The notes: generated by a model not told the origin, from the sequence alone. Shown: positions 10,798-25,426, counted from the first letter of the stretch. The stretch: 64,000 nt of DNA from Pedobacter sp. (GCA_050253415.1 JBFWJC010000002.1:576725-640724), one strand, 5' to 3'. Numbers and translations are program-made.

Positions 10798-10916
10798 ATA
10801 AGCGGTTTTTAGGTAAGTAAAATATGACCAAAATCCTGTGAAACACTACGTCCAAAACGGACGCTGAGAGCACCTTGAAGCATCTGTCAAATCTCTTTAA
10901 CCGTAAGGAGAAAGTC

Positions 10917-13319
10917 ATGTCTCAAAAACAAACTGTTCAGATCAATTCCGCAGTAGCCGAGCATGGACCGTCGAATCGCGTGGAGCAGGTTAAGGACCGG
11001 TTCCTTACCTACACTCCCGAAATCTGCCCGGAACGGGCCCGTCTGATCACCGAGTCCTATAAGGAAACCGAAGCTCTGCCAATGCATCTGCGTCGGGCCA
11101 AGTCTCTGGAAAAGATTCTGGCCGGCATGTCGATTTTCATCGAGGACGATGAGCTGATCGTCGGCAACCAGTGCAGCAAGCCCCGCTCAACCCCGATCTT
11201 CCCGGAATTTTCCTGCCAGTGGCTGGAAGATGAGCTGGATCGTCTCGCTAAACGCCAGGCGGATGTTTTCCTGATCTCCGAAGATACCAAAGCTATCCTG
11301 CGTGATGAGGTCTTTCCCTACTGGGCCGGAAAAACCAATCAGGAGTACGCGACCTCTTTGATGACTCCCGAGGCACTCGCCGCACAGGGTGCCGGGGTGT
11401 TCACGGTCGGCAACTACTATTTTAACGGTGTCGGTCATATCTCCGTCGATTACCAGAAAGTCCTCGAAGATGGCCTGGACGGTATTATTGCCGAGGCCGA
11501 GTCCGCCAAAGCCACCCTCGATTGCGCTGATCCGGATGACTTGAAGAAGGGGCAGTTCCTCGATGCCGTGATCATCAGCAACAAGGCGGTTATCGCTTTT
11601 GCCAACCGCTTTGCCGACGAAGCTGAGAAGCTTGCAGCGTCTGCCGACGCCACCCGCAAGGCCGAACTGCTGGAAATAGCCCGTATCTGCCGCAAGGTAC
11701 CTGCACAGCCGGCGGCAACCTTCCACGAAGCACTGCAGTCCTTCTGGTTCCTTCAACTGGTGATCCAGATCGAAAGCAACGGTCACTCCATTTCACCGAT
11801 GCGCATGGATCAGTATCTCCATCCTTACTATGCCGCGGATAAGGCCAATCTCGGCGCCGAAAAGGTTCAGGAACTGGTGGACCTGCTGTGGATCAAGATG
11901 GCCGGCGTCAACAAGGTGCGCGACGAGGGCTCGACTCAGGCCTTCGGTGGTTATCCCATGTTCCAGAATATCATCGTCGGCGGTGTCGATCGTCACGGTG
12001 AGGATGCCACCAACGAGCTGTCCCTTATCCTGATGCAGGCGACCGCCAATACCGCCCTGTATGCTCCTTCGCTCTCCGTTCGTATTCACGAAGGGACGCC
12101 GACCCTGTTCTGGAAAAAGGCTGCCGAAGTGGCCCGTCTGGGTCTCGGCATGCCCGCCTGGTACAACGACCGGGTTGTTATTCCCGCTCTTCTGTCACGC
12201 GGCCTGACCCTGGAAGATGCTCGCGATTATGGCATCATCGGTTGTGTCGAGCCCCAGGTTGGCGGTAAGACCGAAGGCTGGCATGATGCTGCGTTCTTCA
12301 GCATGTCCAAGGTTCTGGAGCTGGCTCTGAATAACGGTTACGATCCCATGGGCAAGGTGCAGCTCGGACCGCAAACCGGTTCGGTCGAAGATTTCAAGAG
12401 CTTTGACGACGTGGTGGCTGCGTATCAGAAACAGATGGAATATTTCGTCAAGCTGCTGTGCCATTCTGATAATGCCGTCGACTTGGCTCACGCCAAGAAT
12501 GTTCCCCTGCCTTTCCTCTCCGGGATGGTCGAAGACTGCATCGGTCGCGGCAAGTCGGTCCAGGAAGGTGGCGCCATTTACAATTTTACCGGGCCTCAGG
12601 GCGTCGGTGTGGCCAACGTCGGCGACTCTCTGGCAGCCATCAAGAAATTCTGCTTCGATGAAAAGGTTCTCTCTCTGCCCGAGCTTAAGGCGGCTATGGA
12701 CAAGGATTTCGAAGGCGCCGAGGAACTGCGCCAGATGCTGGTAAATAGGGCACCGAAATACGGCAACGATGATGACTATGCCGACGAGGTGGCGGTTATG
12801 GCGACCGATATCTATTGTGCCGAAGTGCAGAAATACCGCAATCCGCGTAACGGTATTTTCCAGCCCGGACTCTATCCGGTCTCGGCCAATGTGCCCCTGG
12901 GCTGCGTGGTTGCCGCAACGCCCGACGGACGCAAGTGCGGTCAGCCGCTGGCTGACGGGGTTTCGCCGCAGGGTGGGTTCGACACCTCCGGTCCCACGGC
13001 CACCGTCTGCTCGGTCGCTAAACTGGATCACACCGTGGCATCCAACGGTACATTGCTGAACCAGAAATTCTCCCCCGATTCGCTGGCCGGGGAAGACGGA
13101 CTGCAGAAGTTGATTGCCGTTACCGATACCTTCTTCAAGCGGGGCGGATTCCACGTGCAGTACAACGTCATATCCCGCGAGGTGTTGGAAGATGCACAGG
13201 CCAATCCCGATAATTACAAAGGCTTGGTTGTTCGTGTGGCTGGTTACAGTGCCTTCTTTACGGTTCTGGATAAATCGATTCAGAACGATATTATCAGTCG
13301 TACCGAGCAGGTAGCCTGA
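10917..13319 (+). CDS. Glycyl radical enzyme, B12-independent diol/glycerol dehydratase clade
   Basis: RVAGYSA glycyl loop, GCVEP Cys loop, NGVGHISVDY, ESNGHSIS, WHDAAFF and GLYPVSAN motifs typical of the DhaB1/propanediol dehydratase clade; AAGGAG RBS. Confidence 0.92.
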   Translation: MSQKQTVQINSAVAEHGPSNRVEQVKDRFLTYTPEICPERARLITESYKETEALPMHLRRAKSLEKILAGMSIFIEDDELIVGNQCSKPRSTPIFPEFSCQWLEDELDRLAKRQADVFLISEDTKAILRDEVFPYWAGKTNQEYATSLMTPEALAAQGAGVFTVGNYYFNGVGHISVDYQKVLEDGLDGIIAEAESAKATLDCADPDDLKKGQFLDAVIISNKAVIAFANRFADEAEKLAASADATRKAELLEIARICRKVPAQPAATFHEALQSFWFLQLVIQIESNGHSISPMRMDQYLHPYYAADKANLGAEKVQELVDLLWIKMAGVNKVRDEGSTQAFGGYPMFQNIIVGGVDRHGEDATNELSLILMQATANTALYAPSLSVRIHEGTPTLFWKKAAEVARLGLGMPAWYNDRVVIPALLSRGLTLEDARDYGIIGCVEPQVGGKTEGWHDAAFFSMSKVLELALNNGYDPMGKVQLGPQTGSVEDFKSFDDVVAAYQKQMEYFVKLLCHSDNAVDLAHAKNVPLPFLSGMVEDCIGRGKSVQEGGAIYNFTGPQGVGVANVGDSLAAIKKFCFDEKVLSLPELKAAMDKDFEGAEELRQMLVNRAPKYGNDDDYADEVAVMATDIYCAEVQKYRNPRNGIFQPGLYPVSANVPLGCVVAATPDGRKCGQPLADGVSPQGGFDTSGPTATVCSVAKLDHTVASNGTLLNQKFSPDSLAGEDGLQKLIAVTDTFFKRGGFHVQYNVISREVLEDAQANPDNYKGLVVRVAGYSAFFTVLDKSIQNDIISRTEQVA

Positions 13320-13326
13320 TATCGGA

Positions 13327-13355
13327 CAGCCGCGGGGGGAGTCCCCCCGCGGCTG
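13327..13355 (+). other. GC-rich intercistronic hairpin between GRE and activase
   Basis: CAGCCGCGGGGGG-AGT-CCCCCCGCGGCTG, 13-bp perfect stem, no U-tract. Confidence 0.7.
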
Positions 13356-13435
13356 GTTAAAGTTCGAAGGGGTTGGGTTTGCCGCAAGTGATCTATTGGC
13401 AATACCGTAATCATTAGCAGAAAGATGGTCGGACC

Positions 13436-14407
13436 ATGAACTGGACAGACAAACTGTATGACTTCAACGCCCTGCAGGAGCCTGAATGGGAGCCTAGAGG
13501 GTTGGTCTTCGATGTGCAACGATTCGCCATTCATGATGGGGGAGGCATTCGTACCAACGTGTTCATGAAGGGATGTCCTCTCGATTGCCTGTGGTGCCAG
13601 AATCCGGAATCGATTCGTTGGCGTCAGGATATCACCTTCATCGAGCCTCATTGCATTCAATGCCGGAAATGCATTGAGGTCTGTCCTGTTTCAGCCATCG
13701 AAACGAATGAAAAAGATCAGCGTGTCACAGGCATCGACAGGAAAAAATGCATTCTGTGTGGAGCCTGTTTCAAGAGTTGCTATGCCGGTGCTATCAATAT
13801 CATCGGTCGCTGGCTTAGCGTCGAGGATCTGGTAGACATGGTCCGTCGGGATACTGATTTTTATATCGCATCCGGTGGAGGGGTGACTTTCAGCGGAGGA
13901 GAACCGACAGGTCAACCCAAATTTTTGCTGGCAGCATTGCAGGCCATGCAGGGAATTGGGTTGCATACAGCCGTGGAGACATGTCTGCATATCGCCTGGG
14001 AGCAGTTGGAACCTTTGTTGCCCCATGTAGATTTGCTGCTTACCGATATTAAGCACATGGATTCTCAGCAGCATAGCACTTTGACCGGTGTGCCCAACGA
14101 TCTGATTCTGGATAATTTCAGAAAGATTGCAGCAAGGAATATCCCTGTAAGGGTTCGTCTACCCTTGATCTGTGGCCTGAACGACAGCACGCAGAATTTG
14201 CAGGCGACGGCGGATCTGGTTCTTTCCTGCAAAAATATCAAGGGTGTGGACGTGTTGCCTTACAACCGACTCGGCATCAGTAAGTGTCGGCAGCTTGGTA
14301 GCGAATACGCACTGGCGGATCTTACTCCTCCTTCGAGGGAAAAAGTCGAGGAGGCAGCCATGTTTTTCCGCAACGTGATAGATGATGTCACTATCGGCGG
14401 TGCGTAG
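13436..14407 (+). CDS. Glycyl-radical enzyme activating protein (radical SAM with ferredoxin-like insert)
   Basis: HDGGGIRT..KGCPLDCLWCQNPES, two CxxCxxCxxxC inserts, GGVTFSGGEP. Confidence 0.95.
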   Translation: MNWTDKLYDFNALQEPEWEPRGLVFDVQRFAIHDGGGIRTNVFMKGCPLDCLWCQNPESIRWRQDITFIEPHCIQCRKCIEVCPVSAIETNEKDQRVTGIDRKKCILCGACFKSCYAGAINIIGRWLSVEDLVDMVRRDTDFYIASGGGVTFSGGEPTGQPKFLLAALQAMQGIGLHTAVETCLHIAWEQLEPLLPHVDLLLTDIKHMDSQQHSTLTGVPNDLILDNFRKIAARNIPVRVRLPLICGLNDSTQNLQATADLVLSCKNIKGVDVLPYNRLGISKCRQLGSEYALADLTPPSREKVEEAAMFFRNVIDDVTIGGA

Positions 14408-16529: not shown

Positions 16530-17177
16530 ATGGGTATGGATACGCATGATCCCGTAAAAGTCTTTTTGGTTGATGATCATCCATTATTGCGAACCGGATT
16601 GAGGTTTACTCTCGATGGTATGGAGGATCTTAATCTTATTGGGGAAGCTTCGGATGGATTTGAAGGCGTTGAAAAAATTCTCAAAAATCCTCCGGATATT
16701 GCGTTGATTGACATCGATTTGCCGGGTATTTCCGGCATTACCGTCATCGAGATGGTCAAAAAAAAGCTTCGCAATATAAAGATTATCGCCCTGTCCTCTT
16801 ATTCTGAAAAAACTTTTGTGACCGGTGCTATGGCCGCTGGTGCGGATGGATACATGCTTAAGGCCATCAGCATTATGGCTTTGGTCGATTTTCTCAGAGA
16901 TTTCGCCAGGGGAGAAAATCCCAGTTCGCCTTATTTGCTTGATATGGCCGTACCCGATGAGGAGGGAGGCGAGCAGGATCCCGTTCATATCACGCCACGG
17001 GAGCATCAAATCCTAGAGTTGATTTCTGAGGGGAAAAGTAACAAGCAGATTTCCAGCGAAATTTTTCTTAGTATCGAAACGGTTAAAACTCATATTAAAA
17101 AGATTTTTAGCAAGCTGGAGGTAAAAAACCGTCTGGAGGCCGTTGTTGCGGCCCGACAGCGGAAAATCATTGAATAA
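16530..17177 (+). CDS. NarL/LuxR-family response regulator
   Basis: VDDHPLLRTG receiver, LIDIDLPG phospho-Asp, ITPREHQIL..GKSNKQIS..TVKTHIKKIFSKL HTH. Confidence 0.95.
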   Translation: MGMDTHDPVKVFLVDDHPLLRTGLRFTLDGMEDLNLIGEASDGFEGVEKILKNPPDIALIDIDLPGISGITVIEMVKKKLRNIKIIALSSYSEKTFVTGAMAAGADGYMLKAISIMALVDFLRDFARGENPSSPYLLDMAVPDEEGGEQDPVHITPREHQILELISEGKSNKQISSEIFLSIETVKTHIKKIFSKLEVKNRLEAVVAARQRKIIE

Positions 17178-17265
17178 ATGCCGAGGTAGTTATGCTTGCC
17201 TCGCATGGCTAAACAATATGATGCAATGTCGGATGTTCTGAATCGGTTAACCGGGGAGGACGTGC

Positions 17266-17688
17266 ATGGTTGAGGCAAGGATTAGAGTCTTTTTGGCAGA
17301 TGATCACCCTTTGATCCGCACCGGGTTATCGTTGGCGTTTGAATTCGACCCCAAGGTTGCCATTATCGGTACTGCCGACAATGGTTGTGATGCCATAGAG
17401 GAAATAGAAAGGCTTCTTCCCGATCTCGTGCTTATGGATCTCGATATGCCCGGTTTGTCCGGGGTTGCAGCAATAAGGGAATTACGGAAGAAGTTTCCTG
17501 TGATGCAAATTTTGGTCTTGTCCACGTACAATGATCGTAAATACCTTGAAGATTCTCTCGAAGCAGGCGCTACGGGATACGTTTTAAAAACAATAAGTAT
17601 AGAATCATTATCAAATCTGATTATCGATATTAAGGAAAATAACGAAATTGTTTCACCGTACGTGTTATTTCTTAATAGGGATTCGTAA
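17266..17688 (+). CDS. Single-domain response regulator (NarL-type receiver, no HTH)
   Basis: ADDHPLIRTG, LMDLDMPG, GATGYVLK; 140 aa. Confidence 0.9.
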   Translation: MVEARIRVFLADDHPLIRTGLSLAFEFDPKVAIIGTADNGCDAIEEIERLLPDLVLMDLDMPGLSGVAAIRELRKKFPVMQILVLSTYNDRKYLEDSLEAGATGYVLKTISIESLSNLIIDIKENNEIVSPYVLFLNRDS

Positions 17689-17782: not shown

Positions 17783-19459
17783 ATGAAAAAAACCCTCAAC
17801 CTTCTTGATCTTGTTGATAAAGAGACTCTTGACGAAATACTCGATGCTTTTAACGAAGTATGTGGTATCGGATCGGTTATCGCTGATGTAGAAGGACGTC
17901 CCTTGTCCGGGGAAAAAAACTTTACCAAATTTTGCGCCAAATATTGCCGGGGGACGGAATCCGGGCGCAAGAAATGCTACGCGAGTGACGCCTTTGGCGG
18001 CGAGATGTCTCTGAAGCAACAGGAGCCGTACGTCTACAATTGCCTGAATTCCGGTTTGGTGGACTGCGCGACGCCGATTATCGTTGAAGGCTACCATCTT
18101 GCCAACCTGAATGGTGGCCAGGTTTTGGAAGATCCCATCCCTGAAGATATCGCGATTGCCAGAGCCAAAGCCATCGGGGTTGAAGATATCGATGGCTATC
18201 TGGCGGAACTTGCCAAAGTCCCGTTTGTCACTAAAGCCAAATTGCAGAAAATTGTTAAATTCATGGCGGTTATAACGCGTACCTTGAGCGATATGGCTAT
18301 GCAAAAATACTTGTTGGCCAAACAGTCAAAGGAATATCTGAACAAATTGGTCAATAGTGTCTCCGACTGTATTTTTGCCATTGATGTCAACTTCCGGATT
18401 ACTATGGTCAACAAGGTTTGCCATGAGGCATTTGGTTATGATGGTGGTCAGCTTTACGGGAAAAACTTTTGCGAGCTCTTGGCTCCAGGTGATAAAATCC
18501 TCGAATGTAAAAGTAAATTGGACCATGGGGCAGAAGATAACTTCCGAGTGGAAATGGAAGGGGTTAATAGCGACGGTAGCAAGTTCCCTGCCCAGGTATC
18601 TATTTCACGTATCAACGACGAAGACGGTGCCGTGGCCGGCTATGTCGCCATTTTGAGGAATATTACTGAAGAAAAACGGCATGAAAAAATGAAACAAGAT
18701 CTTGTGGCTATGTTGAGTCACGACATGCGGAATCCGATTTCCGCAATCAACAAGACTCTGGAATTACTTTCTACGGAACGGATTGGCAGTATTAACCAGA
18801 AGCAGGAGCATGTTATCAGGCTTGCGTCTAACACAAATGATCATTTGTGTAGTATGGTTAACTCATTTTTGGATATTTTCAGAGAAGAAAATACAAACTT
18901 TCAGCTAAACAAGACATCTTTCAACCTTGATTCTGTTATAAATGATTGTATTGAGGAACAATCCTTATTGTTGGCCGACAAGAATCTTGGAATAAAATAT
19001 TCGCCAAAAAATACAGCATTGGATGTTCATCTAGATCTTATCCGCATGAAAAGAACGATAACCAATCTTCTCTCCAATGCAATTAATTACAGTGTTGCCG
19101 GTGGAGTTATCAGCGTTGAAGCCAGGCGCGTTTTTGGCCGTAATAAGGTGCTCTTAAATGTCGTTAAAAGTCACCTTGTCGGGCATATAGATCCCTCTCG
19201 GAAATACCTGTGGGTTGCCGTTAAAGATCAAGGGTATGGCGTGCCCGAAGAGTACCAGGAAGCGATTTTCGAGAAATTTTTTACAGTCGAAAGCAGAGAG
19301 GGGATGGGGCGGCGTGGCATAGGCCTGGGGTTGGCATTTTGTAAACTTGTTACGGATGCGCATGGTGGAATCATTTTTGTCCGCACACCGACAAGTAAGC
19401 CCAAGTACCAGAAAACACCCGGGTGCGAGTTTCACCTTGTCGTGCCGGTTGCCCAGTGA
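17783..19459 (+). CDS. Cytoplasmic histidine kinase: PocR ligand-binding, PAS, HisKA and HATPase domains
   Basis: PocR-like FC..R..C..SD and YNCLNSGLVDCATPIIVEG..GGQV; PAS; SHDMRNP H-box, NLLSNAINY, DQGYG, GIGLGL; no TM segments. Confidence 0.9.
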   Translation: MKKTLNLLDLVDKETLDEILDAFNEVCGIGSVIADVEGRPLSGEKNFTKFCAKYCRGTESGRKKCYASDAFGGEMSLKQQEPYVYNCLNSGLVDCATPIIVEGYHLANLNGGQVLEDPIPEDIAIARAKAIGVEDIDGYLAELAKVPFVTKAKLQKIVKFMAVITRTLSDMAMQKYLLAKQSKEYLNKLVNSVSDCIFAIDVNFRITMVNKVCHEAFGYDGGQLYGKNFCELLAPGDKILECKSKLDHGAEDNFRVEMEGVNSDGSKFPAQVSISRINDEDGAVAGYVAILRNITEEKRHEKMKQDLVAMLSHDMRNPISAINKTLELLSTERIGSINQKQEHVIRLASNTNDHLCSMVNSFLDIFREENTNFQLNKTSFNLDSVINDCIEEQSLLLADKNLGIKYSPKNTALDVHLDLIRMKRTITNLLSNAINYSVAGGVISVEARRVFGRNKVLLNVVKSHLVGHIDPSRKYLWVAVKDQGYGVPEEYQEAIFEKFFTVESREGMGRRGIGLGLAFCKLVTDAHGGIIFVRTPTSKPKYQKTPGCEFHLVVPVAQ

Positions 19460-19546
19460 GGTCTGGGAGGGAACGTGTATCAGTCTCGGGTTCGATAAGG
19501 CTTAAAGAATAGATCTGTTACAGAAACAGATTAGTTTGTCTGTAGT

Positions 19547-19586
19547 AAAAGACCGGTGCGAGTGGCGCCGGTCTTTTGTTTTTTTT
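19547..19586. terminator. Bidirectional terminator between convergent operons
   Basis: AAAAGACCGGTGC/GCGCCGGTCTTTT stem flanked by A and T runs. Confidence 0.8.
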
Positions 19587-19612
19587 CCGTGGATGAAGAA
19601 CCTGGTTAGACA

Positions 19613-20206
19613 CTAATTCATGCTCGCCAGACTTTCAATAATTTGCTTTGAAATCAGGTTTTTGGAGGAATTGTAGGATGATTCGGGCGCCACCAGCCCG
19701 ACGATAAAATATGCGGTATCTTCTGCTGGGGTAACGAAACCGACCAGCCGTCGCTTATTGAAATCCAGGTCGATCCATAAAAGATTGCCAGCTTCCGGGT
19801 CGATGCGCTCAAGCTGATCCATGGCATAGATCATTTCCGCTCCCGTGCATTCAAAACCGTGGCCAGGGATTCGGCCGCGCGTCGCAATAATGAAGCCCTG
19901 AGAATCGACGACAAAGGCTGCCTCGGCGCGGGTCACGCTGATACACCAGGCAATGCAGCTTTCCCAGTCGGCAAACCTCTGGGGTGGCGGTGCAACCTCT
20001 GTTTCCTGGGGGGCTTCTGTGTTGGTAGGACCTGCTACGGAGGCCGGCAGCGCTACAGGGTCTATCCTTTGTTGCGCAGTCAGGCGCACAAACGTTTGCG
20101 TGTCGCTTCGCTCCAGGGGTTTCCCATGTTGTTTTTTCGGTACGAGAGTGGCCAGAATCTGCTGCGCGTACTTCAGGTTATACGAGTTCACGTTGCGGTC
20201 TTTCAT
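19613..20206 (-). CDS. Hypothetical protein with Pro-rich linker and C-terminal Roadblock-like domain
   Basis: AEAAFVVDSQGFIIATRG resembles the Roadblock/LC7 beta-hairpin motif; start overlaps the end of the parA-like gene. Confidence 0.6.
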   Translation of the reverse strand: MKDRNVNSYNLKYAQQILATLVPKKQHGKPLERSDTQTFVRLTAQQRIDPVALPASVAGPTNTEAPQETEVAPPPQRFADWESCIAWCISVTRAEAAFVVDSQGFIIATRGRIPGHGFECTGAEMIYAMDQLERIDPEAGNLLWIDLDFNKRRLVGFVTPAEDTAYFIVGLVAPESSYNSSKNLISKQIIESLASMN

Positions 20207-20993
20207 CTTCGACTCCCGTATCGCCACCCATATTTTGGATGATGGTTTGGATTTCCGTAGCCAGTATCTCGAATCTTTTGGCTTCAGGTGGGCACCTGCC
20301 TGGTAAAAATGCGACCGGTACGCCTTTTTCGCTGGCCATGTGAAAAACCTCGGCGCGCGGTATGTAGGTTTCCATGACGCCGGGTAGCGACGACCAGGCG
20401 GTATTCATGATGGTGAAGGAAACATCCATGCTCAATTCCACCATGATGGCCAGAATGCCGAGCAGTTCGAGATCCGGGTTTTCAGTTTCTTTGACGTGCT
20501 GAAGCACATGCAAGGATTGAGAAATGGCCCGCAGGGCAAGAGGCTCCGCCTGCAGGGGGAGCAGGGTATGGGTGCTGACCGCCAGCGCTGCTCGGGTAAC
20601 CGATCCCAGCCCCGAAGGGGTATCGATGATGATGTAGCGGAATCGATGTTGTACTGATGTGATGATATCCTGCAGAGCCGTGGAGCAGCGCAGAACATTT
20701 TCGTAGATATCGATGTCCAGCGGATCAAGGCAGCCCCTTGGCAGAATTGATAGCTGCGGTAATTTGGTTTGCATGATGACATCGTCAAGCAGTGTCTCGT
20801 CAACTATGTGTTCCGCCAGGCCGCGCCACTCGGTGTCGCTGCGTGCCAAAGAAAAACCGATGGCGCCAAGAGGGTCCACGTCGATGAGTAGCGTGGAATC
20901 TCCAGCTTCGGCCAATGCAACGGCCAAATTCAGGGCAACCGTGGTTTTGCCTGTGCCGCCTTTGGAACTGACTATGGAAATAATATTTGCCAT
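20178..20993 (-). CDS. ParA/MinD-family ATPase (no parB nearby)
   Basis: Deviant Walker A KGGTGKTT, LLIDVDP, IIIDTPSG. Confidence 0.92.
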   Translation of the reverse strand: MANIISIVSSKGGTGKTTVALNLAVALAEAGDSTLLIDVDPLGAIGFSLARSDTEWRGLAEHIVDETLLDDVIMQTKLPQLSILPRGCLDPLDIDIYENVLRCSTALQDIITSVQHRFRYIIIDTPSGLGSVTRAALAVSTHTLLPLQAEPLALRAISQSLHVLQHVKETENPDLELLGILAIMVELSMDVSFTIMNTAWSSLPGVMETYIPRAEVFHMASEKGVPVAFLPGRCPPEAKRFEILATEIQTIIQNMGGDTGVEDERPQRELV

Positions 20994-21190
20994 ATCTTCA
21001 CCGCATATCGTTAAGCGTGTTGTATCCGGGCGTGACGTAGTATGCCTCCCGGATTTCGCTATTTCTTCAGCGTCCTGCTGACCCAACTCCGGATATATGT
21101 CCATCGGCCAGATGGCGGTGCGTTCCAGGTTCATGCCAGGAGGCCGTCGCTGCTATGCCCGTGGGCGCACTGTTGCTGATATGTCTCCGG

Positions 21191-21769
21191 TCACTTGCTG
21201 GTTACAATAAATTCGCCGTAGGCATCGCCTGCTTCGAGACCTTTGGTCTGCTTACAGACAAAGGTGTCCATGCCATCCGGGTAGGGGGCCGCATAGGTAA
21301 GATCGAAGAAGGCTTGATTCAGTCCTTGCAGCATGTAGGCACGTAATCCTTCCCCCTTGCTGTCTGCTTCGTAATAATCGAAAGCCCGGACAATCATTTT
21401 TTTTCCTTCTTTCAGTTGCACGATGCCCGATTTTGCCCAGCCCCAGGCGGTGAACGCCGCATAGGCGCCGCGCAGAATGTCTTTTTCATCTTCGGTGACC
21501 ATTGGCATAACCACTTCGCTGAAAATTTCAGAGGTGATAATGCCGCAGCCGGTGTGGTAGCCACATTCATAGGCCGCCCTGACCAGTCCAGCCTCGATCT
21601 CGGCTTTACGCTCGGGTGCTGCAGCGAGAAGTCGTTCCGTTAAGGTGTTCAGCAACGAAACAGGCAATAGGTTGACCAGTACTTCGTATTCCGGGATCAA
21701 TCCTTGCTCGTTACTTTGCACAGTGACTTTGGCAAGAGCCTTAACCACGTCGTTTCGCATGACCGTCAT
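21191..21769 (-). CDS. V4R-fold-like protein
   Basis: AWGWAK motif and C-terminal xQTKGLEAGDAYGEF pattern resembling V4R (4VR); GGAGG RBS. Confidence 0.6.
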   Translation of the reverse strand: MTVMRNDVVKALAKVTVQSNEQGLIPEYEVLVNLLPVSLLNTLTERLLAAAPERKAEIEAGLVRAAYECGYHTGCGIITSEIFSEVVMPMVTEDEKDILRGAYAAFTAWGWAKSGIVQLKEGKKMIVRAFDYYEADSKGEGLRAYMLQGLNQAFFDLTYAAPYPDGMDTFVCKQTKGLEAGDAYGEFIVTSK

Positions 21770-21788
21770 GTGGATCCGTCCTCCTTGT

Positions 21789-22304
21789 TCAAGCTGCCTT
21801 GACGACAAACACGCTTTGTTCCTCGCCTGTGACCATTCCGGCAGTTTCGGTTACGGAAAAACTTCTGGGGGCGCCATTGAAAATTGCGGCAAACAAGGCC
21901 GCTACATAGCCGCGCGTGAAATGGTTGATCGGTTTATGGTGTTTGCCCCATTTTATCAGCCAGCCTTCATCGATATGGGAATGGCTGAGTCGGGCTTCTC
22001 CGGATTGATCGTTGCCACTGATGGTCATTTTACCCAGCCCGAAAGTAGAGAAATATTCGGTGCCGACCATCCCCTTTTCCCTGCTGTCGGTGATACTGTT
22101 TTTCTGGAAATAATCCTCAAGCAGGACACGCATCGTATCTTCGACCGTATCAGCCAGAATTTGCGGCCCGTTGATATCATCCAGGTCTTCCACCAGTTTG
22201 GTGATGAGTGCCAGGTAGTGGTGGGAATGCATGACCACAGGGTGACCGTTAAGGTAGTGACGATAGGTAGTGTCATCGAGAGTGAAGTCGAGTTTAAGCG
22301 GCAT
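21789..22304 (-). CDS. V4R-fold-like protein with His cluster
   Basis: HSHHY, FGLGK, NHFTRGYVAALF, VTETAGMVTGEEQSVF; AGGAGG RBS. Confidence 0.65.
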   Translation of the reverse strand: MPLKLDFTLDDTTYRHYLNGHPVVMHSHHYLALITKLVEDLDDINGPQILADTVEDTMRVLLEDYFQKNSITDSREKGMVGTEYFSTFGLGKMTISGNDQSGEARLSHSHIDEGWLIKWGKHHKPINHFTRGYVAALFAAIFNGAPRSFSVTETAGMVTGEEQSVFVVKAA

Positions 22305-22316
22305 CGCGTGTTCCTC

Positions 22317-23093
22317 CTAGAAAGACAAGCCAAGCTCTTGGAACAGTTTTTTGGTTTTGTGACGAATGATTCCCAGCTTGGAAGCGTCGGGGGTGACGAT
22401 GGCCGCAATGGCATCTCCTACCGGTTTGCACATGATGACTGCCCTGCCGTATTCGATGAACATATCCTGGAACTGGTTGACATTCAGCTCCGTGCCCATT
22501 TCTTCAATGCCATTGATGGAGTGAGCCAGCGAGGCTCCCAGTTCATCAATATTTACCCGGGCGCTGCTGCCGGCGGATTCAATGACGAATCCGTCACGAC
22601 CAACTACCACCACGGCATCAATGCCGGAGATTTCCAGCAAATCGTTCAAGACATCTGTCGATTCTCTTGGTTCTTGTTCCATGGACGTATTCCCTTCCTC
22701 AATTACTGGCGCGCTATTGGGTGTAAAGCTGTTAGTCATGTTTTCCTGTAAAACAATGGCTTCAAGGATGGCATGCTGGACCGACAAACCGATGTCTGTC
22801 TCCGGGGGGGCGATTCCCGGCAAGAAATTAAAAGACCCCTTGTTCCAGTTGAGCATGTCGGCAAAGCTTTCCATTCCGGTTTTTTCACTGGTCTTTGCCG
22901 ACAGGACCTTGCCCTTTCCAAAATAGATCATGCCCTCTTCATTTTGCGGATGGCGTACAATTCTGATCGCGCCACTTTCGGCGCTCGCTGCCAGAAACTG
23001 CAATAGGTCGGTAATGGTCGTCAGCGACAAGTTACCTTGTAGACCACGATCTTTCGGATCGCCTGTTATGGTTGGACCATAGAGCCCGGGCAT
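22317..23093 (-). CDS. DUF4388 (PatA_N-like) plus Roadblock/LC7 domain protein
   Basis: LQGNLS..DLLQFL..GMIYFGKGKV..WNKGSFNF N-terminal domain; ISGIDAVVVVGRDGFVIES Roadblock C-terminal domain. Confidence 0.85.
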   Translation of the reverse strand: MPGLYGPTITGDPKDRGLQGNLSLTTITDLLQFLAASAESGAIRIVRHPQNEEGMIYFGKGKVLSAKTSEKTGMESFADMLNWNKGSFNFLPGIAPPETDIGLSVQHAILEAIVLQENMTNSFTPNSAPVIEEGNTSMEQEPRESTDVLNDLLEISGIDAVVVVGRDGFVIESAGSSARVNIDELGASLAHSINGIEEMGTELNVNQFQDMFIEYGRAVIMCKPVGDAIAAIVTPDASKLGIIRHKTKKLFQELGLSF

Positions 23094-23209
23094 ATTTAAC
23101 CATCCTGAATTGGTAGGTGTTTAAAGCTGCGTCCTTGGTTTATTCCAGTTGTGGGCCCGTTTCTCGGACTGTTTCAGACTTCCCTATGCCTTGGTAAAAA
23201 GGGCAGCCC

Positions 23210-24553
23210 TTAACCGAAGACCAGCATGGTCGAAGTCTGATTGATGTGGCCGATATACTGTTCCCCATAGGTACTGAATCCGACCGTGGGGATGTCGGCA
23301 AAGAGTTTCCCGTAATCCCCGCAGAGATTCTGCTGGCGCAGATCCAGCGTTCGCAAAATACAATCGAAATTGATGATCCCCGAGATGCTTCCGTGTTTCT
23401 TTTGAGCCTGGGCAATTGCCTGACGGGTGTCGCCGATCATATCGGTGGATTCAAGCAGCGAGAGCTTCATGCCCTCCTTGACACCGCAATAAAAAAACAT
23501 GGTGTCCCCTTTGATGCGTTGCGGGCTGCGGACATAGGGCTCGCCGTCGACAACCAGTCCGATGGGGTTACGCATAAAGCGCTGACTTACTTCGTTGACC
23601 GGCACACCGATCGCTTCGGCATAGGCTACCGCGGCTGGTTTATCGTTGAATTGCAGAACTTCGCGATTGGCTTCATCAGCTTTGGTTACCCTGAGAGTTT
23701 TGCCGAGAAACCGGAAGCTTTGGGTTTTGATGAAGGAGAATCCAATCCCCGGTTTTAGGAGTGCGAGAATTGCGGCATTGGTGTAACAGGTGCCATGTGC
23801 ATAGACGTGGGTTGCTGAAAATTGCAGATCATCGCCAGCCGAGCCGCCGATAAAGGGTACGTTGGTCAGGTCACCGAGGGTTTCAATGACTTTCTCTTCA
23901 ATACCGGCCAACCCGTCGATCAATAGGATGCCAACGTACCGGGAGGGATCCATGGCGCCTACAGGCTGCCTGAAGTGGGTCTCGAAATTATGGAAGGCCT
24001 GTTCGATGGAGGAGCGTTGTTTGAGGTTCTGTATGACTTCAATTTTCAGGTCCTGCGCCGCTTCGGCAGAAAAAGCCATGGCGACAACAGCGCCTGTCAG
24101 CATATGGCCGCTGGTGATTTCACCTGCCGTTGAGCAGCCGAAGACCTGGGCTTTGGGGAATCCATCATGCATGTGCCTGCTGATGGCGTCGGGCGCATGT
24201 TGCATGGAAGAGAAAAATATAACCATGGCAGGGTCCATGCTTGCAAGTTGCTGTTGGATTTCCCTGACGCATGCTTCGGTGGATATTTGTTTTGAAAACG
24301 CCGTTTTGATGGTCCCGGTCGAGGGCTTTTGGGGGGTATTTGAACGGATGTCGCCCGTTGCAACGCAAAAGGTCTTCATCATGTCTTCCAGCTTGGAAAT
24401 AATGGCAGGTACGTCCTCGGACTGGGCTGTGTACTTGACCGGATTAATACCCTTGAGGATCATTTTGGTTTTAATGACCCGTTCCATCATGGGGTTGTCT
24501 TTTGCTGCGTGATCGATGATGAAGTCGATCATTTGGCGAATTTTTCCTGCCAT
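23210..24553 (-). CDS. FIST-N/FIST-C sensory protein with extra ~60-aa N-terminal domain
   Basis: FGCSTAGEI, IGGSAGDD, FDCILR and GFSTYGEQ..HINQTST FIST motifs; AGGAGG RBS. Confidence 0.88.
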   Translation of the reverse strand: MAGKIRQMIDFIIDHAAKDNPMMERVIKTKMILKGINPVKYTAQSEDVPAIISKLEDMMKTFCVATGDIRSNTPQKPSTGTIKTAFSKQISTEACVREIQQQLASMDPAMVIFFSSMQHAPDAISRHMHDGFPKAQVFGCSTAGEITSGHMLTGAVVAMAFSAEAAQDLKIEVIQNLKQRSSIEQAFHNFETHFRQPVGAMDPSRYVGILLIDGLAGIEEKVIETLGDLTNVPFIGGSAGDDLQFSATHVYAHGTCYTNAAILALLKPGIGFSFIKTQSFRFLGKTLRVTKADEANREVLQFNDKPAAVAYAEAIGVPVNEVSQRFMRNPIGLVVDGEPYVRSPQRIKGDTMFFYCGVKEGMKLSLLESTDMIGDTRQAIAQAQKKHGSISGIINFDCILRTLDLRQQNLCGDYGKLFADIPTVGFSTYGEQYIGHINQTSTMLVFG

Positions 24554-24835
24554 GAAAATACCTCCTGATAAAAGTCCAATTCTGCTTGTTTGGCCTAACA
24601 GACTGGTGCTGACATTTGCCTGAGCGGATTTTGTTGCGCTCGTATTTGACGCGGTGTTTTTATCAAATGGCGGATTGCCGAGATTGCAAAGAAGAAGCGG
24701 CTTGAAAACAGAAATGATTTATTTAAATGTAAGGAAGGTAATATAATATTTTAATCATTGATGTCAATATATTAAAATATAATTTTTAACGATGTTTTAT
24801 TTTGTCTGGTGTCTGGCGAGGGGAGGTCGCAGGCG

Positions 24836-25426
24836 TTATGGCAGGGGGGCGGTGGATCTTAACTGAAAGAAATCGTGGGCTTCAAGCATGAATGCGGCAA
24901 AATCGGTTTCGAGCCCTTGCTGGTGTCGTAACAGTTCCTCTATGCCCTTGCCAAGGAGGTTGGGACGGCTGAGGCGGGCCGCCAGTCGTTGCAAAACTAT
25001 TTCGATGTGATCGAGGTTCCGTAACGCCACAAGCCAGTTTATCGCCAGCATACGCGGAAGGTGTTTGCAAAAGGATGGCGGCAACAGGGATTGGTAGGTC
25101 TGCAAAACAAGATGAATGGAGGCCGCGAATTCTTCCAGCGGTTGGCTATGGTAGGATCCCCAGTTTTTGGCAAGAAAGTGGTCGTAGGCGATATCGACCA
25201 GAATCCCGCGGCAATGGCGCAGTTTCGGATTCAGGCGTTTTTTGCTGCGGCGAAAGGCAACCGCCGTCTCGGCAAAGCTATCGAGTTGACGGTGGTGAAC
25301 GATGCCATGAAGGACTTTTTCAGGCAGTCGTCGGTCGAGGGGGCCCTTGATATAATCCCCGAGCAGGGCGCCCAGTCGGGCACCCGGGTGCGGTTCGACC
25401 AGATAGAGGTGCAGCAGGTGGTTCAA
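24836..25426 (-). CDS. acpH: Acyl carrier protein phosphodiesterase
   Basis: MNHLLHL, LGDYIKG, HRQLDSF, VDIAYDHFLA motifs; TTG start. Confidence 0.85.
   Translation of the reverse strand: MNHLLHLYLVEPHPGARLGALLGDYIKGPLDRRLPEKVLHGIVHHRQLDSFAETAVAFRRSKKRLNPKLRHCRGILVDIAYDHFLAKNWGSYHSQPLEEFAASIHLVLQTYQSLLPPSFCKHLPRMLAINWLVALRNLDHIEIVLQRLAARLSRPNLLGKGIEELLRHQQGLETDFAAFMLEAHDFFQLRSTAPLP

Follow-up and report, generated by a model that had tools for sequence, protein, structure and literature searches.

Positions 19613 to 24553 of the window analyzed here, a stretch of 64,000 nucleotides from Pedobacter sp. (GCA_050253415.1 JBFWJC010000002.1:576725-640724), are filled by six co-oriented open reading frames (ORFs) on the minus strand. 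In order, they encode a FIST protein, a PATAN(DUF4388)-Roadblock protein, two V4R-fold proteins called here V4Ra and V4Rb, a ParA-type ATPase and an adaptor with a C-terminal Roadblock fold; the gene set that an earlier note had proposed from the bare sequence was borne out. On balance we lean towards reading this operon as a conserved cytoplasmic signalling module built on a ParA-type ATPase that acts as a ligand-gated switch or positioning device. In sister operons from other phyla an MglB-MglA pair is found in place of the ParA and the adaptor. All the domains are known ones, and the operon combines a ParA-partner system with V4R and FIST sensors and with the Roadblock/PATAN scaffold familiar from MglA systems.

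The six genes stand in the same order in seven of seven related genomes of the same family, one of bacteria from sediments, while the genes that flank them differ (stretches of 10-13 kb). A V4Rb-seeded scan with a 12-row alignment and one genome per species was followed through the best 80 of its 216 relatives, whose source names include Desulfuromonadales, Myxococcota, Thermoanaerobaculia, Anaerolineae, Planctomycetota, Ignavibacteriales, Gammaproteobacteria, Clostridia and some archaeal-labelled bins. V4Ra lies directly upstream of V4Rb in all 80 loci, and the PATAN-Roadblock protein gave a tblastn match in 65. All six gene families were matched by tblastn in 36 loci, every one with a Desulfuromonadales-type source name; five further Desulfuromonadales loci showed no match to ParA, to the adaptor or to both, three of them being cut at a contig end. 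An adaptor-seeded search of metagenome contigs gave 78 loci. ParA is directly upstream of the adaptor in each of the 57 that have more than 900 nt of upstream sequence, and the PATAN-Roadblock protein, V4Ra, V4Rb and ParA are all present in each of the 27 with more than 5.3 kb. This synteny across genomes and loci excludes a chance origin of the gene set, and the co-occurrence on which the earlier note had made its proposal depend proved to be strong.

Among the 80 V4Rb-seeded loci, ParA is present in 43 and an MglA-like GTPase in four (L058, L065, L069 and L078); none carries both and 33 carry neither. This distribution fits a ParA that stands where the GTPase stands in the sister operons. 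In three of its four loci a Roadblock gene adjoins the GTPase gene, and two of these three have a PATAN gene beside it as well. No GTPase match was found in any of the 78 adaptor-seeded loci. The earlier note had considered whether homologous clusters always carry an MglA GTPase or a chemotaxis core that is simply missing here. They do not: the loci with ParA outnumber those with a GTPase as just described, and MCP genes occur in a distant clade only (families c22 and c34, in six and four of the 80 loci). The suggestion that ParA replaces the GTPase agrees with this exclusion at the level of the locus, but less well with the genome as a whole, which encodes such GTPases elsewhere.

The ATPase gene (20178..20993, minus strand; 271 aa) matches Pfam AAA_31 with 110.9 bits against a cut-off of 27. 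Its product has the deviant Walker A motif KGGxGK[ST] with the signature lysine, together with the Walker A' and Walker B aspartates, and residues K11, G12, G13, G15, K16, T17, D38, D40 and D124 are the same in all 17 orthologs. Among solved chains, 8ray_B, a 'ParA family protein', is the nearest (E 1.6e-27). The protein could be placed in none of the named functional subfamilies considered (partition ParA, MinD, BcsQ, MipZ and FlhG). It falls below the cut-offs of ParA_partition (79.6 of 180 bits), minD_bact (52.9 of 212.9), BcsQ (78.2 of 157.85) and minD_arch (75.3 of 201.75), and reaches no NCBIfam equivalog.

The adaptor gene (19613..20206, minus strand; 197 aa) gave no match in Pfam or NCBIfam and was assigned by predicted structure and Foldseek. 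In the model, a short N-terminal helix (residues 7-22, positions 20141-20188) is joined by a proline-rich, disordered linker to a Roadblock-fold domain (residues 81-195, positions 19622-19966) with the order alpha-beta-beta-alpha-beta-beta-beta-alpha. MglB chains were the best Foldseek matches of this C-terminal domain (6hjm, E 3.5e-5, TM score 0.71 normalised to the target), and other Roadblock/LC7 proteins followed. The N-terminal motif, contained in the first 22 residues, is kept in homologs down to 33-36% overall identity.

Two copies of ParA with two ATP and a single adaptor were modelled as a complex in three runs beside three controls, and the complex scored 0.73 (0.70, 0.74 and 0.73 in the individual runs) against 0.01 for the best control. 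In a benchmark of this score, the mark was met by 116 of 157 solved complexes and by 2 of 215 mismatched pairs, a calibration that is only approximate here because our own alignments and an ATP ligand were included. The runs agreed in at least 60% of their contacts, with a partner pLDDT (predicted local distance difference test) of 66-69. In the predicted interface, adaptor residues 7-22 face residues 154-168, 176-179 and 198-205 of one ParA copy and residues 47-55 and 224 of the other. That the adaptor helix is placed across both protomers of the ATP-bound ParA dimer speaks for binding without proving it, and solved ParA/MinD-peptide complexes possibly helped the model. Partner peptides of other ParA/MinD ATPases likewise lie across the ATP-dimer interface. 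In this model the contact of ParA with the Roadblock-like partner, a pairing that the earlier note had put forward, falls to the N-terminal helix and not to the Roadblock surface that MglB uses.

V4Ra (21789..22304, minus strand; 171 aa) matches Pfam V4R at E 0.036 and 14.6 bits, below the gathering score of 31, and V4Rb (21191..21769, minus strand; 192 aa) gave no match in Pfam or NCBIfam. The predicted structure of V4Rb (pLDDT 87.5, from a 30-row alignment) is matched by Foldseek over its whole length to the aromatic-sensor domains of MopR, PoxR and DmpR (E 2.7e-6, TM score 0.70, probability 1.00) and next to Bet3/TRAPPC3 (TM score ~0.55). Sequence identity to these structures is 11-16%, and a search of PDB sequences with the V4Rb alignment profile returned nothing below E 0.5. 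For V4Ra, the weak Pfam match, Atlas neighbours that are V4R/DUF5943 clusters and a natural fusion all point to the V4R fold. In this fusion, P0124 (387 aa), the N-terminal half is 37% identical to V4Ra (E 8e-39) and the C-terminal half 50% identical to V4Rb (E 1.1e-44). The relatives of V4Rb amount to only 109 representative clusters (E <= 0.001) among 1.84 billion proteins, and about 25 of the 109 are of fused length. Remote fused homologs exceed the Pfam V4R cut-off, with two stretches matched (P0178, 73.1 bits; P0193, 65.9; P0188, 46.7; P0180, 44.9). The folds proposed in the earlier note hold, for V4Rb through the MopR/PoxR match, for the adaptor through MglB, for V4Ra on the three grounds just given and for the other proteins through Pfam.

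Since natural fusions of the two proteins exist, V4Ra and V4Rb probably form a heterodimer. V4Rb is the best conserved of the six proteins, with 82-93% identity across the genera of the family. His26, His28, His29, His110 and Asp112 of V4Ra are invariant in 72 of 72 sequences; Cys69 and Cys172 of V4Rb are invariant as well, and His72 is present in 70 of 77 sequences. V4R and TRAPPC3 proteins are described as dimers held by their N-terminal helices, with ligand cavities and a possible cysteine-based zinc site, in PMC10933270. By analogy, Cys69 and Cys172 of V4Rb, together with His72, may form a structural zinc-type site.

The FIST gene (23210..24553, minus strand; 447 aa) matches Pfam FIST (139.6 bits) and FIST_C (78.6 bits), and its product comprises a small helical module (residues 1-62), FIST_N (110-305) and FIST_C (307-433). 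The helical module (24368-24553, minus strand) is encoded by a separate ORF of 63 aa (family c8) in 22 related loci, for example L024:5177-5368. It also resembles c14, an ORF of 62 aa that precedes V4Ra in 11 distant loci (hhalign probability 83%, E 8.8e-6, 37 columns); ORFs of the c14 type, which are unassigned, are upstream of V4Ra in L085-L097. Possibly the N-terminal module represents a small helical subunit accompanying the V4R pair. Gene 2 (22317..23093, minus strand; 258 aa) has a DUF4388/PATAN domain at residues 19-115 (63 bits, cut-off 25) and a Robl_LC7 domain at residues 147-233 (40 bits, cut-off 23). No Response_reg (REC) match was found in it with Pfam, and REC-PATAN forms are seen among the proteins of sister loci. 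Of 16 other genomes in the family, 14 encode a full-length ortholog of the PATAN-Roadblock protein and two, which are 84% and 67% complete, do not; outside the family, in one genome from each of 24 other families of the order, the matches are at the level of domains only.

From these elements a mechanism in five steps can be proposed. The FIST protein and the V4Ra/V4Rb heterodimer would be two units that sense small ligands or metals, and the target of both would be the PATAN-Roadblock protein. This protein would pair, Roadblock domain to Roadblock domain, with the adaptor, whose N-terminal helix, placed as modelled on the interface of the ATP-bound ParA dimer, would control ATP turnover or recruitment. 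The ParA cycle would then set where or when the complex acts. The likely output is the PATAN domain, speculatively onto a secretion or pilus ATPase of the PilB/MshE type. Nine MshEN-domain ORFs are present in the same genome. PilB1 and PilC of Synechocystis are binding partners of the PixE PATAN domain (bioRxiv 10.1101/2021.06.11.447907). A table of PMC11934962 annotates GSU2641 as a 'PATAN domain GTPase-activating protein', which could not be connected with the operon.

The operon resembles several known systems in part. It shares with MglA/MglB of Myxococcus xanthus and Thermus thermophilus the presence of Roadblock-fold regulators beside a nucleoside triphosphatase (NTPase) switch and the association with PATAN, and the sister V4R operons carry a Roadblock-GTPase-PATAN triad. 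It differs from MglA/MglB in having no small GTPase but a ParA-type ATPase in its place, and in a modelled contact made by an N-terminal peptide instead of the Roadblock dimer face. We know of no MglB-centred system with V4R or FIST partners. Like the orphan ParA/MinD positioning systems (MinD-MinE, ParA-ParB, PomXYZ, McdAB, ParC-ParP and PpfA-TlpT), the operon encodes an ATPase with a deviant Walker A motif and, translationally coupled behind it, a partner whose N-terminal helix is modelled at the ATP-dimer interface; in contrast to those systems, the partner has a Roadblock domain, and the two genes are tied to genes for V4R, PATAN and FIST proteins. PATAN/DUF4388 is also found in the PatA-type regulators PixE, PixG and PatA, where it has been shown to be the output domain that binds PilB1/PilC. 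Gene 2, in contrast, has no receiver domain and its PATAN is fused to Roadblock, whereas REC-PATAN(-Roadblock) proteins are encoded in sister loci. V4Rb has the fold of the XylR/DmpR/MopR/PoxR sensors and of TRAPP Bet3, at the TM scores given above, yet V4Ra and V4Rb are stand-alone paired proteins with neither the AAA+ nor the DNA-binding output of the former. Finally, the FIST protein has the FIST_N plus FIST_C architecture of the nitric oxide sensor NosP, but it scores 277.5 bits with the NCBIfam NosP model (residues 85-447) against a cut-off of 450, lacks a co-transcribed kinase or cyclase and carries the additional N-terminal module of 62 aa.

In the literature, no description of this gene set was found. 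The statement of the earlier note that it knew of no described system with this composition nevertheless has to be qualified: a preprint (10.64898/2026.10.19.760177, with reference to its Figure 2B panel 16) says, in one sentence of the text and one of the discussion, that ParA domains of the PriB1 clade displace MglA in MglA-MglB centred systems. This one-line idea is the sole overlap found and is the same as ours; the text of the preprint gives no composition, partner or mechanism. As marks of PriB1 it names an Asn at the start of Walker A and a Gln two residues after the DxD, positions at which the ParA of the operon has Ser and Leu.

Several observations weigh against a ligand-gated ParA module. 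The exclusion between ParA and GTPase rests on only four GTPase loci, and the genome itself has an adjacent MglB-like/MglA-like pair about 230 kb away, as well as two more MglA-like genes. The mean pLDDT of the adaptor model, built from an 8-row alignment, is only 64, and the alignment of the adaptor with the Roadblock domain of gene 2 by hhalign is in register but weak (probability 22%, E 9.8e-4). FIST is absent from 5 of the 27 long adaptor-seeded loci, which carry a desulfurase-family gene instead (the other 22 have FIST), and from every ParA-bearing locus outside Desulfuromonadales; ParA occurs without FIST in L060, L062, L066, L077 and L082, all five with an adaptor match. FIST is therefore an add-on and not part of the core. 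A second PATAN-like gene, c5 (305 aa, weak DUF4388 match at E 0.0018), lies between V4Rb and ParA in 32 of the 80 V4Rb-seeded loci (L024:8735-9676 and 31 others) and in 17 of the 27 long adaptor-seeded ones, but is absent from the operon described here, where the window and the closest relatives show a gap of 197 nt instead (20994-21190). The desulfurase-family gene of the sister operons and the invariant His and Cys residues of the V4R pair, lastly, are compatible with cofactor handling as well as with sensing.

The presence of MglA-like GTPases elsewhere in the genome means that the Roadblock proteins could act on GTPases in trans. The operon would then be the input branch of an MglA polarity system, and ParA would only position the complex, at the nucleoid or the pole. 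We consider this rather unlikely, although it is the most probable of the alternatives. Besides the MglB-MglA pair, the two other MglA-like genes have no Roadblock match alongside, and each lies about 2.3 kb from an ORF of 840 aa with an MshEN domain, the two loci being similar (G000:C5:61327-64361 and G000:C6:170590-173526). Wuichet and Sogaard-Andersen found PATAN genes in the vicinity of mglA/mglB (PMC4316618), and the Roadblock surface of the adaptor is left free in the complex model. However, no GTPase was found within 8 kb in any of the 43 ParA-bearing V4R-seeded loci, nor in any of the adaptor-seeded ones, and where a GTPase is present ParA is absent, which argues for replacement and not for cooperation. 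The NCBIfam MglB equivalog (NF052242), moreover, scored 12.8 bits against a cut-off of 200.

A broader interpretation, which we regard as unlikely, is that the operon is a bacterial counterpart of the eukaryotic TRAPP core. The two Bet3-fold and two Roadblock proteins would form a ligand-gated regulator of an NTPase switch, with ParA acting here as the switch in place of the MglA found in certain phyla. The likeness to the TRAPP core rests on gene linkage and on the resemblance to the Bet3 fold (TM score ~0.55). If this interpretation were true, NTPase regulators made of Bet3-fold and Roadblock/longin proteins would be older than the eukaryotes and not restricted to GTPases of the Ras type.

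Cofactor or metal-sulfur handling is less probable still. The V4R pair would hold a metal or sulfur ligand provided through a dedicated cysteine desulfurase, and ParA would be a delivery chaperone of the SIMIBI type. A cysteine-desulfurase-family gene (c7; TIGR01977, 362 and 340 bits, cut-off 377) follows V4Rb in 25 of the 80 loci and lies between V4Rb and ParA in 5 of the 27 adaptor-seeded ones. The four invariant His and one Asp of V4Ra and the two invariant Cys of V4Rb would suit such a role, and metal-cluster roles have been proposed for other ParA branches (10.64898/2026.10.19.760177). Against this, there is no desulfurase in the operon and none was found in the window by tblastn (E <= 0.01); the same search found no match to the other sister-operon families c5, c9, c14, c23 and the GTPase c33 that could represent a remnant. 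The partner genes encode signalling domains (PATAN, Roadblock, REC, MCP, small GTPase). ATPases of the Mrp/CooC type have a bridging metal site. No invariant Cys is found among the 65 invariant columns of ParA in 17 orthologs, and therefore a metal site of that kind is absent. Cys and His sites of V4R and TRAPPC3 proteins can also be structural zinc sites (PMC10933270). Least credible of all is that the operon serves in defence against phages or in conflict by means of its ParA-like ATPase, a role that preprint 10.64898/2026.10.19.760177 describes for many ParA lineages. This was set aside because PADLOC gave no meaningful match (none for five proteins and, for ParA, only weak P-loop matches at E 1.6e-4 or worse): the preprint does link V4R domains and ParA in predicted immune systems, but the proteins evolve slowly, as V4Rb illustrates, Pfam detects no effector domain in the six of them, and the locus is stable and single-copy throughout one family.

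Of the means by which bacteria order their interior, the ParA/MinD and MglA/MglB systems are the two that are best understood. The operon and its sister operons suggest that one sensor-scaffold set (V4R pair, Roadblock and PATAN) can drive either kind of NTPase, and, if so, the interchangeability of ATPase and GTPase switches becomes testable in cultivable bacteria. The operon also provides the first genomic context for three unannotated families, V4Ra, V4Rb and the adaptor, and the partner prediction for adaptor residues 7-22 is precise enough to be mutated. For the question of how the regulators of eukaryotic trafficking arose, too, the operon is relevant, as it links proteins of the Bet3 and Roadblock folds around an NTPase.

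Gene starts were corrected from ortholog alignments. ParA begins at the ATG at 20993 and not at 21134, V4Rb at 21769 and the adaptor at 20206, the last overlapping the end of ParA by 29 nt. The gaps between the preceding genes are, in order, 116, 12, 19 and 197 nt. The region upstream of the operon is AT-rich, as had been noted (GC 0.39), and contains a sigma-70-like promoter, TTGACA-16-TATATT (24740..24767, minus strand), with 11 of 12 consensus positions, about 190 nt 5' of the FIST gene. Its -35/-10 block aligns in five of eight orthologous leaders, the five of the same genus, and beyond the promoter the eight aligned leaders show no conservation. Rfam gave no match over 19300-25000 at E <= 1 and no riboswitch in the leader of about 190 nt. 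At the other end, a terminator hairpin common to the operon and to a convergent histidine-kinase gene (19544..19580; 16-bp stem with seven G-C pairs) was described earlier as bidirectional; it is followed by a T run on the plus strand and was scored as a terminator on that strand alone, and the tail on the minus strand has four T. All six proteins appear cytoplasmic, as expected from the earlier note, with no plausible membrane helix in 19-residue windows (the sole exception is a core strand of ParA), and the families of kinases, cyclases, DNA-binding proteins and small GTPases gave no match in them with Pfam and NCBIfam. On the plus strand, a 368-aa ORF (21645-22751) runs opposite V4Rb, V4Ra and the end of the gene for the PATAN-Roadblock protein; in our view it is a shadow ORF cast by the conserved genes of the minus strand.

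Other genes recur around the V4R pair, among them REC-PATAN(-Roadblock) regulators and stand-alone Roadblock genes. The conserved gene c9 (100-104 aa, unassigned) occurs in 22 of the 80 loci. Outside Desulfuromonadales, in 25 loci within L058-L099 (for example L058:8640-10092), the V4R pair is followed by the desulfurase-family gene and c9. Five V4R-pair loci (L064, L068, L070, L087 and L089; 52-64% identity) are on contigs labelled Methanoregula, Methanoregulaceae, Woesearchaeota or 'archaeon', which reflects either transfer between domains or mis-binning. Within the window, the histidine kinase convergent with the operon is a PocR-PAS kinase (17783-19459, plus strand) with two response-regulator genes upstream (16530-17685, plus strand). 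It adjoins the operon in only two of the seven family loci (L014 and L018) and is therefore probably unrelated. Farther away, at 10875-14404 of the plus strand, are genes for a glycyl-radical enzyme (PFL-like, 846 bits) and its radical-SAM activase.

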